Below, piece by piece: positions 9,198 to 49,828 of a stretch of 64,000 bases of DNA. The notes under the pieces are model-generated. The model saw only the letters and a list, made by a program, of their open reading frames with translations, was not told where the DNA came from and ran no database searches. The position numbers and the translations under genes are program-made. Source of the stretch: Octopus vulgaris (lineage: Eukaryota); contig OX597821.1 of the NCBI GenBank assembly GCA_951406725.2, positions 11,532,001 to 11,596,000 of the forward strand, given 5' to 3'. The first letter of the stretch is position 1, and the number at the start of each line of letters is the position of its first letter.

Positions 9198-10400
9198 GAT
9201 TGATTGATTGATTGATTGATTGATTCTAGTTTCAGCCTATGAGCTGTGGCCATGCTGGGGCACCGCCATTTGGTGTTGCTACTTGGTTTCACTTCATGGA
9301 GGCTTTCTAGCAACTGCTATTTGGTGCATGAGAGAGTTCGATGCAGCTGCCCTCATCTGCCCCTCCTGCCGTGAAGTTGGTTCATCTGGGACACCTGACA
9401 GGAAGAGATCCAGCTTCATTTTAAAGACATCTGTATCCACCCCATGCAGGTCTCTCAGGTTCTTCGGGAGGATATTGAAGAGCTGTGGGCCTCGGAAGCC
9501 CAGGCTATCACAGAATCTTGTCCTACATCTTGATGGCAGGTTTGGAGTCCTAGGCACCACGCAGTGGCGCCCAGTTCTGGCATTTGCGTAACTCTCGATG
9601 CCAAAGTTCAGGACACTTCCCTCCAGGATCTTCCAGATGTATATTATGGCATATCTTTCCCGCCTACGCTCCAGGGAATATAATTTTAATCTCTTGAGTC
9701 TTTCCCAGTAGCTTACATTCTGCATAGAGGCTATCTTCTTTGTGTAGCTTCGTTGGATCGCCTCAAGTTCTGTGATCAACTTGACACTAGATGGTGACCA
9801 TAGCTGAGAGCAATAGTCAAAGTGGCTTAGGACAAGTGTCTTCCAGAGGACCATCATGGTTTCTTGTTCTCTTGTTCTAAAGGTTCTAAGAATCCATCCA
9901 GCCAGCCGTCTACATTTCATTGTCAGTTTAGCAACATGTACATGAAAGGTCGCGTCATCACTCATGTGAATACCCAGGTCACGCACTGATTGTGCCTCTG
10001 GGATTGCAATCCCTCCGGGTCCAGTGTATTCATTGGGTATTGCATTCAGTTTTGCATGCTGATAGTATAAAGCTTGAAACTTTCCAGCATTGAACTGCAT
10101 GCTATTGTTTTTAGCCCACTTGTATATTTCGTCCAGCTCACATTGCAGGTGTTTAGTGTCCTCAGGGTTCTGTATTGCCTGTGAAACTTTTGTATCGTCT
10201 GCATAACTTGTGATCGTGGCTCTCTGCGTGGCTGAGGGCATGTCTGAGAGGGCCATTATGAACAGTAGTGGTCCCAGAACAGTGCCCTGCGGAACACCGC
10301 TCACTATTTGTGTGTTAATGGAGGTGGCCCCATTGGCTACTACCACCTGACTTCTATCCTTCAGAAAGTCATGAAGCCATTCTCCCAGTTTTCCAACTAT
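9198..10400 (-). mobile_element. 5'-truncated CR1-group (CR1/L2/Crack-like) LINE, RT C-terminal half with an open frame
   Basis: ORF 9294-10400 contains SGVPQGTVLGPLLF, YADD, FNAGKF, VRDLG and SLERRR. A short 3' UTR and (AATC)n tail follow, and (TA)n flanks both sides. Confidence 0.92.
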
Positions 10401-10563
10401 ATATATATATATATATAAAAGCAATTAAGATTCAAGTCAATTCTAATGAATTTACTTGAATATGGTACTTAACTTAGATGCACCAGAAAACTATATGGTG
10501 TTAACCAATACAGTAGTGTGGGGTGATTATAAACGAGAAAAGAAGCAACAAGAATGGATTAGT

Positions 10564-11080: not shown

Positions 11081-12415
11081 AGGAAAAATTTTTTAAAAAA
11101 ATGCAGAATGCTCAAATGAAAGAAAATTTTAATAAAATGAGAAAATGATAAAATATATAAATGTATATTTGTTCAACCGGTTTTCGTCATTGTATGACTT
11201 GTCAAGAATATTTATGTTTTAAGAAGTTTTTTTAAAATTAGAAAGGGGAAAAAAGAAAATTGCATTGTTTTTTGTAAAAGAATAATGATAAAAATGTACA
11301 AAAATTAAAAAATAAGTTCTCCGATACATTGTGAGTTCGTTGTGTATCTTGCGTTTTATGGTTGTTTACGAAAAAATTACCTTGAGGTGTTAAGATCCAA
11401 AGGGATTAAGAGCATGTGTTGTGTTGTGTTGTTAAATTCAGCATGTTTGCAGGACAGGAAGTAGTAGTAATTGTGGTCCTGGTTCTTCAGTTCCTGTGTT
11501 GTGAGTAAGGGGAGACAACTCTTTTGAGTTCTTCAATAAAACCCAAATTATAAAACTATCATTTTAGCTTCATTTGCATTATCTTTTTTATATAATTGCT
11601 TGTTAACTTAACTTTCAGATTTTAACACTTTATTTACATTATTTTCTAATAATATAAATCTGCATAGACAATTGCATTTCAAATTGTCATATCATTTATA
11701 ATAAAAATGATAGTAATAACAACAATAGTAAAAATGATATTTAAAGAATATAAGTTTTAGCTTGAAGTGATGAATGCATGGTATCTTTATATATTTGTGT
11801 TAGTCCATCCATGAAAAGTGATGTAGAGAAAGGAAGTTTGATCAACGAGGAGTTTGCATATTAAGTTGTGTTTGGAATTTTTCAATAAAGAGATTCTCCT
11901 TGTTAATTCTCTCCTGTGTGGTGATCCCGTCTTTACATTGGTAGAAGGGGAATATATAGAATTTGGGGTTTAAGTCGTTAGCACATGAGTCTAAGTGGTC
12001 ACTCAGTGGAATTTGTCGGTATTCCGGGAGATTTATTTGTTCTTTATGCACCGTTACTCGTTTACGTAACGGGAGACTCGTTTGTCCAACATAATTATGT
12101 TGGCAACCAGCGCATGTGAGAACGTAGATAAGGTTCTCGGAGGAACAGGAGAAGTTAGTCTTGATTTTAAACTTCGTACCTTGTTTGAAGGTAAATTCAG
12201 AGCCTTCAAGTAGAAAGGAGCAGGTACCACAGTTTGAGCGTGCACATTTTTTTTACTGTTGGGGGTGGATGTGGTGTGTGAAGTTTGGCATTTGTCAAGA
12301 GTTTTTTTTTTGTCAAGAAATTTTCTTTCATTTGAGCATTCTGCATTTTTTAAAAAAATTTTTCCTTACTTATCATTTCTCCACGTGCGGTCAACACAAC
12401 CCCACCATTTATTGA

Positions 12416-12984: not shown

Positions 12985-12986
<2 letters not shown>

Positions 12987-13225
12987 GGCTCACTGGTTAG
13001 AGCGGACTCACAATCATGATGTATTGAATTCGATACCCGACCGGGCTGTGTCTTGTGTTCTTGAGCTGTGACGTCACTGCTGCTAAGCTATATCGGTATT
13101 TGCTTTTCTTTTGGACAACATCGGTAGCGTGAAAAGGGGAGGCTTGTACGCATGTGCGACTTCTGGTTTTCTATAAACACCCTTACCTTGACTTGTGCCT
13201 CACAGTGTAGCTTTCTTGATGCAAT
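12985..13225 (+). mobile_element. SINE family D (degenerate, internally deleted)
   Basis: tRNA-like head TGGCTCACTGGTTAGAGC...TTCGATACCCGACCGGGC. The tail matches the reverse complement of 43886-44224. Confidence 0.7.
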
Positions 13226-32364: not shown

Positions 32365-33690
32365 AGACTGCTCAACCACTCAAATGTGGAAGTCATATAT
32401 CTCGACTTTGCAAAGGTCTTTGATAAATTCGATCGTGGAATGATATGTCACAAACTGAGTGATCTTGGCATAGTTGGAAAATTGGGAGAATGGCTTCATG
32501 ACTTTCTGAAGGATAGAAGTCAGGTGGTTGTAGCCAATGGGGTCACTTCCATTAACACGCAAATAGTGAGCGGTGTTCTGCAAGGCACTGTTTTGGGACC
32601 ACTACTGTTCATAATGGCCCTCTCAGACATGCCCTCAGCCACGCAGAGAGCCACGATTACAAGTTATGCAGATGATACAAATGTTTCACAGGCAATACAG
32701 AACCTTGAAGACACTATGCATCTGCAATGTGAGCTGGACAAAATATACAAGTGGCTGAAAAGAATAGCATGCAGTTCAATGCTGAAAAGCTTCAAGCTTT
32801 ATGCTATCAGCATGCAAAACTAAATGCAATACCCAATAAATACACTGGACCTGGAGGGATTGCAATCCCAGAGGCACAATCAGTGCGAGACCTGGGTATG
32901 TACATGAGTGATGATGCAACCTTTCATGTGTATGTTGCTAAATTGGCAATGAAATGTAGGCGGCTGGCCGGATGGATTCTTAGAACCTTTAGAACAAGAG
33001 ACCAGGAAACTATGATGGCTATCATCATATACATGATGGTCCTCTGGAAGACACTTGTCCTAAGCCACTTTGACTATTGCTCTCAGCTATGGTCACCATC
33101 CAGTGTCAAGTTAATCACAGAACTTGAGGCGATCCAACGAAGCTACACGAAGAAGATAGCCTCTGTGCAGCATAGAAGCTACTGGGAAAGACTCAAGAGA
33201 TTAAGACTCTTCTCCTCACAGCGTAGGCGAGAAAGATATGCCATAATATACATCTGGAAGATCCTAGAAGGACTTGTCCCAAACTTTGGTATTGAGAGTT
33301 ACACAAATGCTAGAACTGGGCACCACTGCATAGTGCCAAGGACTCAAAATTTGCCATCAAGATGTAGGACAAGATACTGTGATAGCCTGGGCTTCAGAGG
33401 ACCACAGCTCTTCAATATCCTCCCGATGACCCTAAGAGACCTGCATGGGGTGGATGCAGATGTCTTTAAAATAAAACTGGATCTCTTTCTGTCAGGTGTC
33501 CCAGATGAACCAACTTCATGACAGGAGGTGCAGATGAGGGCAGCTGCATCGAACTCTCTCATGCACCAAATGATTATTGCTAAAAAGCATTCGTGAAGTA
33601 AAATCATGTAGCAACACCAAATGGCGGTGCCCCAGAATAGCCACAGCTCGTGAGTTGAAACTAGATAAAATAAAATAAAATAAAAAATAG
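32365..33690 (+). mobile_element. 5'-truncated CR1-group LINE of the same family as 9198-10400, pseudogenised
   Basis: YLDFAKVFD, SGVLQGTVLGPLLF and YADD motifs. Frameshift near 32755, 21-bp insertion at 33019-33039, premature TGA at 33519 and an (ATAAA)n tail. Confidence 0.92.
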
Positions 33691-43885: not shown

Positions 43886-44224
43886 TAAGACCCCCCCCCC
43901 GGTAATGACTGACCATGGGATTGCACCTAGAAAGTTACCCTCCCAGGCACAAGTCCGGGCAATGATGTTTATGGAAGACCAGCAGTCGCCCATGCATACC
44001 GGCCTCCCCTCGCCATGCCACCAGTGTTATCGAAGGAAAAGGTAAAGGCCTATACAGCTTGGAACATGTGACGCCGCAACTCATTTCTACAGCTGAGTGA
44101 ACTGGAGCAACGTGAAATAAAGCGTCGTGCTCAAGAACACAACACGTAGCCCGGTCCGGGATTCGAACTCACAACCTCACGATCGTAAGCTCGACGGTCT
44201 TACCACTGAGCCATGCGCCTTCAC
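43886..44224 (-). mobile_element. SINE family D, full length
   Basis: Minus-strand head GGCGCATGGCTCAGTGGTAAG...GAGTTCGAATCCC with A and B boxes. The tail is shared with 12985-13225 and 49635-49828. Confidence 0.85.
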
Positions 44225-45595: not shown

Positions 45596-46300
45596 TATAT
45601 AAATACATGTATGCATGTACGTATGTATGCATGTATGTATGGACGTACGTGTATGTGTGCTTAGGTGTCTCTGATAATTGTATTTAAAGTGAGAGAGGTT
45701 TTAAAAGTGAGTGATATGGAAAAAAGTAATGTGAGAGAAAGAGAAAGAGAAAGAGAAAGTGAGGGGGAGAGAGATAGAGAAATACGTGGTTATAAATTAC
45801 ATTAAATGATACAATGAAAAAACTTAACACGTAAAACAATGTAAATCTTCTGTAAAAAAAAAACAACAAAAAAAACAATTACAATACAAAGAAAACTGAA
45901 ACAAGAAATTTGGTATTGTTTTATATATGGAAGAAATCCGTGTTATTTGAATTTAACTAACAGCCAAGTGATTCCGTTATCATGTTTAAATGTTCAGAAT
46001 CTGCATTGCCTTTTAGCCATTTGCTGAACATTTCTGTACAACTAATTTCAATTTTGTAATATTGGAAAATATTTTTTCTACTTCTCATTCACTAAATTAC
46101 TAAATATTCGTATAGTAGGTTCTTATTCTTTTTAATTATTGACATAGCATGTCATTTTTGCTCTCCTTTTACATTCCATCAAGTAGACTAACTCAGAATT
46201 TCTCACTATTTTTTTTATTTTTTGGAGGTGGTGAGATATGTGGAATCAGTTAGTTATTGTACTCACTAAAGGCTAAAAGTTCAAATCCTATAAAAGTTTA

Positions 46301-46485
46301 CACTTCTATGTTTAAGAGATGAGGAATTATCTGCATTATTTACATACAAGGGATATTTGTCCTCATCTTGTTTGTTATTAACACAACGTTTCGGCTGATA
46401 TACACTCCAGCCTTCTTCAGGTGTCTTGGAAAAATTTCGAACCTGGGTTCTCATTCCTAAGGTATATTTTTCGATGTTGTTATTG

Positions 46486-46524
<39 letters not shown>

Positions 46525-46616
46525 TTACTGCTTGGAATCGAACTTGGAATCTTGGGGTTAGTAGCCCACGCTCTTAACCACAACGCCATATGCCCACGGT
46601 CATATGGCGTAGTGGT
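46301..46616 (-). mobile_element. tRNA-headed element with an (AAT)n linker and a hammerhead-bearing tail, 12-bp TSD
   Basis: TSD TATAAAAGTTTA at 46289-46300 and 46617-46628. Head at 46521-46595 has A box TGGCGTTGTGG and B box GTTCGATTC. An inverted copy of the head tip sits at 46598-46618. Confidence 0.8.
46381..46424 (-). ncRNA. Minimal type I hammerhead ribozyme motif
   Basis: Minus strand: ACAC-CTGAAGA-A-GGCTG(loop)CAGCC-GAAA-CG-TT-GTGT. Confidence 0.8.
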
Positions 46617-46659
46617 TATAAAAGTTTAATATTCTGTATTTTGTTTATCAAAATGCCTG

Positions 46660-48927: not shown

Positions 48928-49828
48928 GTGGAGGCGCAATGGCCCAGTGGCTAGGGCAGCAGACTAACGACCGTAGGATCGCGGTTTCGATTCCCAGACC
49001 GGGCATTGTGAGTGTTTATTGAGCGAAAACACCTAAAGCCCTACGAGGCTCCGGCAGTGGGTGGTGGTGAACCCCGCTGTACTCTTTCTCCACAGTTTTC
49101 TCTCACTCTTTCTTCCTGTTTCTGTTGTACCTGTATTTCAAAGAGCCGGCCTTGTCACACTCTGTGTCACGCTAAATATCCCCGTTAAGTGTACACTCTT
49201 TTACTTGTTTCAGTCATTTGACTGCGGCCATACTGGAGCACCGCCTTTAATCGAGCAACTCGACCCCGGGACTTATTTTTTTGTAAGTCCAGTACTTATT
49301 CTATCGGTCTCTTTTGCCGAACCGCTAAGTAACGGGGACATAAACACACCAGCATCGGTTGTCAAGCAATGCTAGGGGGACAAACACACTCACACAAACA
49401 CACATACGTATATCTATATATATACATATATACAACGGGCTTCTTTCAGTTTCCGTCTACCAAATCCACTCACAAGGCTTTGGTAGGCCCGAGGCTATAG
49501 TAGAAGAGACTTGCCCAAACTGCCACGCAGTGGGACTGAACCCGGAACCATGTGGTTGGTAAACAAGCTACTTACCACACAGCCACTCCTGCGCCTCGTG
49601 TCTATGGAGTGCTCAGCTACTTCCATGTTAATAAATGAGCTGCGACGACACTAGTGCCAAGCTGTATAGGTCTTTGTCTTTCCCTTAGATAACATCGGTG
49701 GCGGGGAGAGGGAGGCTGGTATGCGTGGGCGACTGCTGGTCTTCCATAAGCAACCTTGCCCAGACGTGCGCTTTGGAGGGTAACTTTCTCGGAGCAATCC
49801 CATGGTCATTCATGACCGAAGGGTGTCA
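48928..49828 (+). mobile_element. SINE family C copy split by an antisense SINE B and continuing into a family D tail
   Basis: The C body breaks at GTACAC (49196) and resumes at CGTGTCTATGGAGTGCTCAG (49597). It switches to the D-type tail at ~49635. Confidence 0.8.
49197..49596 (-). mobile_element. SINE family B, full length, nested
   Basis: Near reverse complement of 50359-50757. Confidence 0.9.

Follow-up and report, generated by a model that had tools for sequence, protein, structure and literature searches.

The 340-base insertion at positions 46289..46628 (minus strand) of the window, by which we mean the whole stretch of 64,000 nucleotides of Octopus vulgaris DNA that was analysed, comes from a protein-coding retrotransposon of the Penelope type, of which it is the short terminal part. 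It has the look of a SINE, yet it is part of an autonomous element: its head, AAT run, hammerhead and tail together are the pLTR of a Penelope/Poseidon-type element, and the locus is such a pLTR inserted without the ORF. Very probably, it arose by a pLTR-only insertion of this element, which carries a tRNA-derived segment with A and B boxes in its pLTR; the element's own RT and endonuclease would likely have used uncut RNA and an AT-rich target.

Read on the minus strand, the insertion consists of a direct repeat, an inverted tip, a 2-nt loop, the head, ten AAT units, a short unique segment, the minimal hammerhead, a stem-loop, the tail and the identical 12-bp repeat again. The parts reported in the first-pass annotation were all recovered. 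The tRNA-like head, closest to Arg tRNAs, occupies 46521..46595 (minus strand), with its A box at 46588-46578 and its B box at 46543-46534. It is followed by an internal microsatellite (46476..46520, minus strand), made of (AAT)10 at 46520-46491 and then AAC-degenerate units, whose length differs among copies. The minimal type I hammerhead motif, with core and stems, lies at 46381..46424 (minus strand). At the other end of the head, a hairpin-junction loop of two bases (46596..46597, minus strand), reversed relative to the autonomous 3′ UTR, leads into 21 nt (46598..46618, plus strand) that repeat the 5′ tip of the head in inverted form, with 90% complementarity. A perfect 12-bp TSD encloses the whole, at 46289-46300 on the 3′ side of the element and at 46617-46628 on its 5′ side, and overlaps the element by 2 bases at either end, at the one with the family's terminal dinucleotide and at the other with the inverted arm. 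Comparison of copies delimits the pLTR segment from the microsatellite to the ATG (46455..46475, minus strand), beyond which the first 52 codons of the Penelope ORF (156 nt; 46299..46454, minus strand) are open from ATG to the element end. The same region contains the Penelope "tail" of about 30 nt (46299..46330, minus strand), which separates the short from the long 3′ end of the family; the copy studied here ends at the long site. A stem-loop with a stem of 8-9 bp is predicted at 46318..46367 (minus strand), with the short 3′ end in its loop, and by analogy with the system described in the accessible text of PMC11167929 it may be the RT start region.

The autonomous element was reached with a search pattern for a Poseidon-type endonuclease motif, which gave 5 loci as against 4 with the reversed-pattern control. 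Four of the 5 loci belong to one family, and in 4 out of 4 the head lies just downstream of the endonuclease frame. When copies were selected on the endonuclease, the head came right after the frame in 26 of 30, mostly about 30 nt past the stop codon, a location which does not support the initial picture of a separate SINE head joined to a borrowed Penelope tail. The 3′ module is also present in 22 of these 30 copies. Moreover, a tRNA profile matches the first 300 nt past the frame in 23 of 30 family copies and in 0 of 30 GIY-YIG loci of other families, and in nine longer stretches RT and endonuclease run into the head. The layout of the autonomous element is ORF stop, UTR of about 30 nt ending in a palindrome, head, (AAT)n, ATG, hammerhead, stem-loop and tail. 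At L267, the one locus of 14 that reached the junction, the tail continues in frame into the N-terminus of the ORF; the overlap of pLTR and ORF start is typical of Penelope elements, and its in-frame junction is seen at this single locus. The tail thus belongs to an autonomous Penelope pLTR, in agreement with the earlier proposal of mobilisation by a Penelope-like element and not by a LINE.

The single ORF encodes RT and then a C-terminal endonuclease, the Penelope arrangement. Among 150 scored copies none has a fully intact ORF, and the longest open frame, of 569 aa and spanning RT and endonuclease (L246), is 68% identical to P0004, a protein with a Pfam RVT_1 match; the RT core motif was recognised in several copies. 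The Pfam GIY-YIG model gave no match to the family's endonuclease, which we take to be of GIY-YIG type from its motif, and a search of solved structures gave no match. Domain order and motif place the family as probably Poseidon-type, and by inspection its frame is without the cysteine linker found before the endonuclease in the Neptune-type ORF. Overall, all the structural features examined mark it as a Penelope-like element. Since no ORF is intact and copies are about 80-88% identical at the protein level, the family looks inactive. No tRNA-like segment was detected in 8 distant relatives (34-42% identity), for which only 155-258 nt past the match were available in the four reaching the ORF end.

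Neptune-type elements, whose 781-aa frames came from a Pfam GIY-YIG search, were considered as the partner and rejected: the pLTR was unshared in 30 loci and 20 longer stretches. Many Neptune-type loci bear a different hammerhead variant. A young Neptune-type family with many intact 781-aa frames (L097, L102, L121 and at least 14 more places), possibly still active, carries in its 3′ region a variant of the hammerhead core, U3-A8. The window itself contains a decayed Neptune-type fragment at 11980-12207 (minus strand), and frames resembling pieces of LINE reverse transcriptase at 9297-10424 (minus strand) and 32733-33518 (plus strand).

The family is large. The whole-element query yielded 5,041 first-look candidates, the 3′ part 2,942 and the head 1,892 (40 scored per query), while the peptide query yielded 38,125. 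Two insertions fell within 349 kb that had not been selected for them, which suggests a copy number on the order of ten thousand, and 20 runs from six organism codes contain most of the words of the element sequence. The claim that head and tail form one unit was borne out by separate queries. From 30 loci selected on the head we removed the window itself, the second arm of one insertion and one segmental duplicate; 23 of the 27 independent loci left have the hammerhead downstream of the head. Of the other four, one has only the segment preceding the hammerhead and three are without the 3′ module; two of these three have Penelope UTR/ORF sequence upstream, and the third has an upstream inverted arm together with an unrelated insertion in the AAT run. 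Conversely, the head lies directly upstream in 22 of the 40 loci selected on the 3′ 156 nt. L021/L022 and L080/L081 are pairs of near-identical insertions with common flanks, that is, segmental duplicates. At L089, L160 and L253, fragments of another non-LTR retrotransposon in the AAT run separate the head from the 3′ module; they resemble the R4/Dong elements, which target TAA repeats.

These counts bear on two alternatives. One could imagine that a tRNA SINE, a microsatellite and a Penelope fragment became nested by chance in a window rich in other tRNA-like repeats and microsatellites, but the identical order of parts recurs at dozens of loci within one TSD, and with 23 of 27 head-selected and 26 of 30 endonuclease-selected loci keeping that order this reading was ruled out, its probability being practically nil. 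The other tRNA-like repeat families of the window include those at 44157-44216 (minus strand), 48939-48996 (plus strand) and 12985-13041 (plus strand). The second alternative, a distinct non-autonomous tRNA SINE with a Penelope tail, living as a family in its own right at the expense of a separate Penelope element, is highly improbable. Short copies are indeed much commoner than ORF-bearing ones, 5′ ends gather at the head, and the reversed-loop copies described below, the locus copy included, may derive from earlier short insertions. Nevertheless, the autonomous element itself contains the head, at a constant spacing from the stop codon, and none of the 27 head-selected loci revealed a head family free of the pLTR. 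As an account of how the fusion originated, this alternative is largely refuted.

Comparison with 8 tRNA types, drawn from 30 tRNA loci of the same genome, placed the head above 300 out of 300 dinucleotide shuffles, with Arg as the best match, and a profile built from these 8 tRNAs matches it at E=8e-4. ARAGORN and the Rfam tRNA model made no call on the head, and the Rfam hammerhead models gave no match to the element's hammerhead; both assignments hence rest on motif, fold and family conservation. The A and B boxes are intact in the head majority sequence, and the tRNA-like segment may well act as a promoter. Most likely, the head goes back to a SINE of tRNA-Arg type, with an AAT tail, that was captured by the ancestral 3′ UTR.

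As for the hammerhead, it comprises stem I, the core, a stem II of 5-6 bp and a 4-nt palindrome in the place of helix III, and its cut is predicted after GUU, between 46385 and 46384. The fold of hammerhead plus tail reaches z=-3.15, and 0 of 200 shuffles folded equally well; another copy gave only z=-1.5. Across 84 arms the core is conserved, the most variable site being the free core nucleotide N7 (T 53, A 28), and the remaining variable positions are mostly CpG sites. Motif, fold and conservation point to a minimal type I hammerhead in the pLTR, a putative ribozyme. The first-pass annotation called the element self-cleaving, but the copies did not move in that way. They include both sides of the cut site, which indicates uncut RNA as their template. 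No more than 2 of 149 arms start within 2 nt of the cut, so cleavage does not define the copied RNA. The frame that contains the hammerhead, 52 codons from the ATG to the element end, is open in the locus copy and in 25 of 46 full-length arms. A search with the 52-aa peptide matched only 3 database proteins, with no Penelope ORF among them, and none of its 150 best genome matches lies inside a frame longer than 203 aa. Two annotated octopus proteins, P0001 and P0003, start with the element's ORF start fused to unrelated host domains, through either exonisation or a gene-prediction artefact. In some copies (e.g., L026, L069, L070, L076) the 3′ module carries a duplication of 9 nt where the short 3′ end lies; this variant may mark a subfamily or reflect slippage of the RT as it starts.

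The anatomy of the insertions was then compared across copies. Their 3′ ends are bimodal, falling at two sites about 30 nt apart, and in contigs of two other organism codes the same two positions appear again as loose ends, bordered by unrelated sequence. Inverted (head-to-head) arms were found in 65 of the 104 distinct insertions. Two complete 3′ ends are present in 50 insertions, of which 48 combine a long with a short end and 2 have two long ends, three of the four insertion samples having required a long arm and being hence blind to pairs of short ends. In the head-selected sample alone, with the duplicate dropped, 13 of 14 are mixed (p=0.0009), and the 7 hand-picked ORF-bearing copies with two arms are all long plus short. 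An exact TSD of at least 8 nt was found in 36 of 47 long/short insertions, as compared to 23 of 2162 swapped-flank pairs. Thus the optional tail of about 30 nt on one end (48 of 50 pairs) and the inverted, 5′-truncated neighbour with a short TSD (65 of 104 and 36 of 47, respectively), both Penelope characteristics, are found in this family. The accessible parts of two descriptions of Penelope elements list inverted pLTRs, TSDs of 8-10 bp, a one-sided tail of 31 bp and palindromic junctions (PMC3846280; PMC8557442).

A mechanism can be proposed from this anatomy and from the available portion of PMC11167929, according to which two RT start sites define the tail, both target strands are cut and extended, and uncut RNA is the main substrate. 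The element's protein would bind the ORF-start region of the RNA, and both strands of an AT-rich target would be nicked about 9-13 bp apart. From one nick cDNA would be primed at the long site and from the other at the short site, and the two primed cDNAs would give head-to-head arms within the TSD. A cDNA reaching the palindrome at the start of the head could fold back and copy a short inverted tip; other copies, too, have such tips, 9-27 nt long. At the locus only the long arm and the 21-nt tip (46598..46618), the probable fold-back product, would be left. The locus copy is atypical in having a TSD although its upstream inverted part is the short tip alone: in the set of 104 insertions, a TSD of at least 8 nt was seen in 0 of 39 single-arm copies and in none of the other inverted copies with only a tip or only a head. 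The 2-nt overlaps at both of its junctions suggest joining via microhomology.

Which RNA gives rise to the short copies is a separate matter. The 5′ ends of head-bearing arms, chosen on the 3′ part only, cluster at the head: 18 of 35 start within -15..+5 of it, while 6 of 35 extend more than 60 nt upstream, into the ORF. The UTR ends in a 5-bp palindrome that takes in the first bases of the head, and the palindrome alone could explain the pile-up, since palindromes at inverted junctions are general in Penelope elements, as far as the accessible text of PMC3846280 goes. The short copies could accordingly be 5′-truncated cDNAs of a full-length Pol II transcript, halting or joining at the palindrome, with the head as an inert passenger that the 3′ UTR acquired in a single capture. 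This reading shares the identity of the element with the pLTR-only insertion favoured above and differs in the source of RNA only; we give it a little less than an even chance. It agrees with the arms that run well upstream into the ORF and with the solo pLTRs and palindromic junctions known in Penelope elements (same source). In their head majority, 60 short and 31 ORF-linked copies are the same except at one polymorphic site, the divergence of the head is alike in short and long copies (0.93 vs. 0.91), and no SINE-specific head subfamily is seen in this comparison, all of which a truncated transcript would accommodate. On the other hand, first-look candidates, as rough counts, drop steeply from 38,125 (3′ 156 nt) to 5,206 (endonuclease) and shallowly from there to 2,892 (RT N-terminus), which speaks against truncation. 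So does the reversed loop: it leads 8 heads unlinked to a UTR, two of which have no inverted tip alongside, and is absent from all 38 UTR-linked heads whose loop can be read. Its confinement to unlinked heads would be expected if inverted arms were themselves transcribed, although annealing of two cDNA ends at the palindrome could also produce a reversed loop in a single event.

From the sequence features, the chances are about even that a short RNA is made by Pol III from the A and B boxes of the head, in which case the pLTR would serve as a built-in SINE as well. No T4 run occurs in the majority line of the 3′ module (84 arms). Such a Pol III short RNA would hold the protein-binding and RT-start region. 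The fuller scenario, which we put forward tentatively and with some doubt, is that a Penelope pLTR captured and uses a tRNA gene-type promoter, so that, through the Pol III short RNA, every inserted end would become a SINE able to spread further by itself, and in tandem copies the promoter may read into a terminator-free ORF. Taken further, the tRNA-type promoter of the pLTR would drive the downstream ORF in tandems, making the element a Pol III-transcribed protein-coding retrotransposon. This last proposal is unlikely. The head does lie about 140 nt upstream of the ATG, and the majority ORF has 0 T4 runs in 2,341 nt, compared with 7 over the 2,295 nt of a Neptune-type ORF from this genome, but this absence is not significant under either of two null models (P=0.12 and 0.09) and the depth at the N-terminus is low. 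Pol III transcripts are, moreover, uncapped and poorly translated, which counts against it. Internal promoters have also been reported already in Penelope pLTRs, in the accessible parts of PMC3846280 and PMC8557442.

Comparison with published systems, limited to the available portions of the sources cited, helps to separate what is familiar in the pLTR-only insertion from what is not. Poseidon of Anolis (PMC11167929) and Penelope of Adineta (PMC3846280) share with the octopus family the RT followed by a C-terminal endonuclease, the pLTR overlapping the ORF start, the hammerhead at the ORF start, the optional tail of about 30 nt on one of two inverted arms, a TSD of 8-13 bp, the palindrome at the inverted junction and the uncut-RNA template; the minimal hammerheads of Penelope elements have likewise been described (PMC4209133). 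By the descriptions in these papers, only the octopus pLTR has a 75-nt tRNA-derived A/B-box segment and (AAT)n, and pLTR-only copies dominate the octopus family.

The first-pass annotation did not recognise the architecture as a named class. For a head joined to a hammerhead there is in fact a precedent in Sm-alpha/Sj-alpha of schistosomes (PMC2770079, PMC6765202), whereas its placement in an autonomous pLTR is undescribed in the accessible text of these papers. The schistosome elements share a tRNA-derived, Pol III-type head upstream of a type I hammerhead and a high copy number; however, they are tandem SINE-like repeats whose canonical hammerheads, with helix III, cut multimers and release monomers from tandem transcripts. 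The octopus unit, in contrast, has only the minimal core, and is dispersed, head-to-head, uncut and physically the end of an autonomous element. The non-LTR retrozymes of metazoans (PMC7229834, PMC7761336, bioRxiv 10.64898/2026.07.22.740005) are, according to the same kind of partial text, also short non-coding hammerhead repeats tied to Penelope pLTRs, but they form head-to-tail tandem arrays yielding circular RNA; octopus copies occur singly or head-to-head and bear the tail signature of Penelope, and no head-to-tail units were seen in our sample, whose design was not suited to catching rare arrays. Pol III- or snRNA-type sequence inside a retrotransposon terminal region is shared with Cassandra, Helenus and Ajax (PMC10886601), and small-RNA-type sequence in the terminal region with the Tx1 LINEs that have U1/U2 heads (PMC4758252); as the available descriptions go, the former are non-autonomous LTR elements and Tx1 are LINEs, while the host here is an autonomous Penelope-like element. 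SINEBase, as quoted from the accessible part of PMC3531059, defines a SINE as the partner of a LINE. In the octopus family the 3′ end is that of the head-carrying Penelope pLTR itself, and, in place of a simple-repeat tail at the 3′ terminus, the AAT run is internal and the 3′ end a fixed unique sequence. The element hence falls outside the definition on partner and tail, though its working may be SINE-like.

The family is so abundant that it has probably been catalogued under some name. Retroposons of octopus derived from tRNA were reportedly described by Ohshima and Okada in 1994, and OR1 and OR2 among such repeats are said to be of Arg tRNA origin. Those retroposons, or the entries of Repbase/Dfam, may already include the family, whether under SINEs or under Penelope; OR2 is termed a CORE SINE in the accessible text of PMC4758252. 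The titles and abstract openings listed by the literature searches describe neither a tRNA/Pol III module in a Penelope pLTR nor a tRNA SINE mobilised by Penelope. Within that range, the tRNA-derived A/B-box module inside an autonomous Penelope pLTR is the novel part, the Penelope anatomy being already known.

The many copies of this family provide a quantitative genomic test of the two-start-site model for Penelope reverse transcription: nearly always, a two-armed insertion has one long and one short end within a duplication of 9-13 bp, a pattern formerly described on single elements. They also carry a warning, in that an abundant "SINE" of the octopus genome is a Penelope end. A Penelope pLTR with a tRNA-type promoter would offer a route for a SINE-like unit to arise from Penelope and to move by it, and may have implications for how retrozymes and hammerhead SINEs such as Sm-alpha originated.
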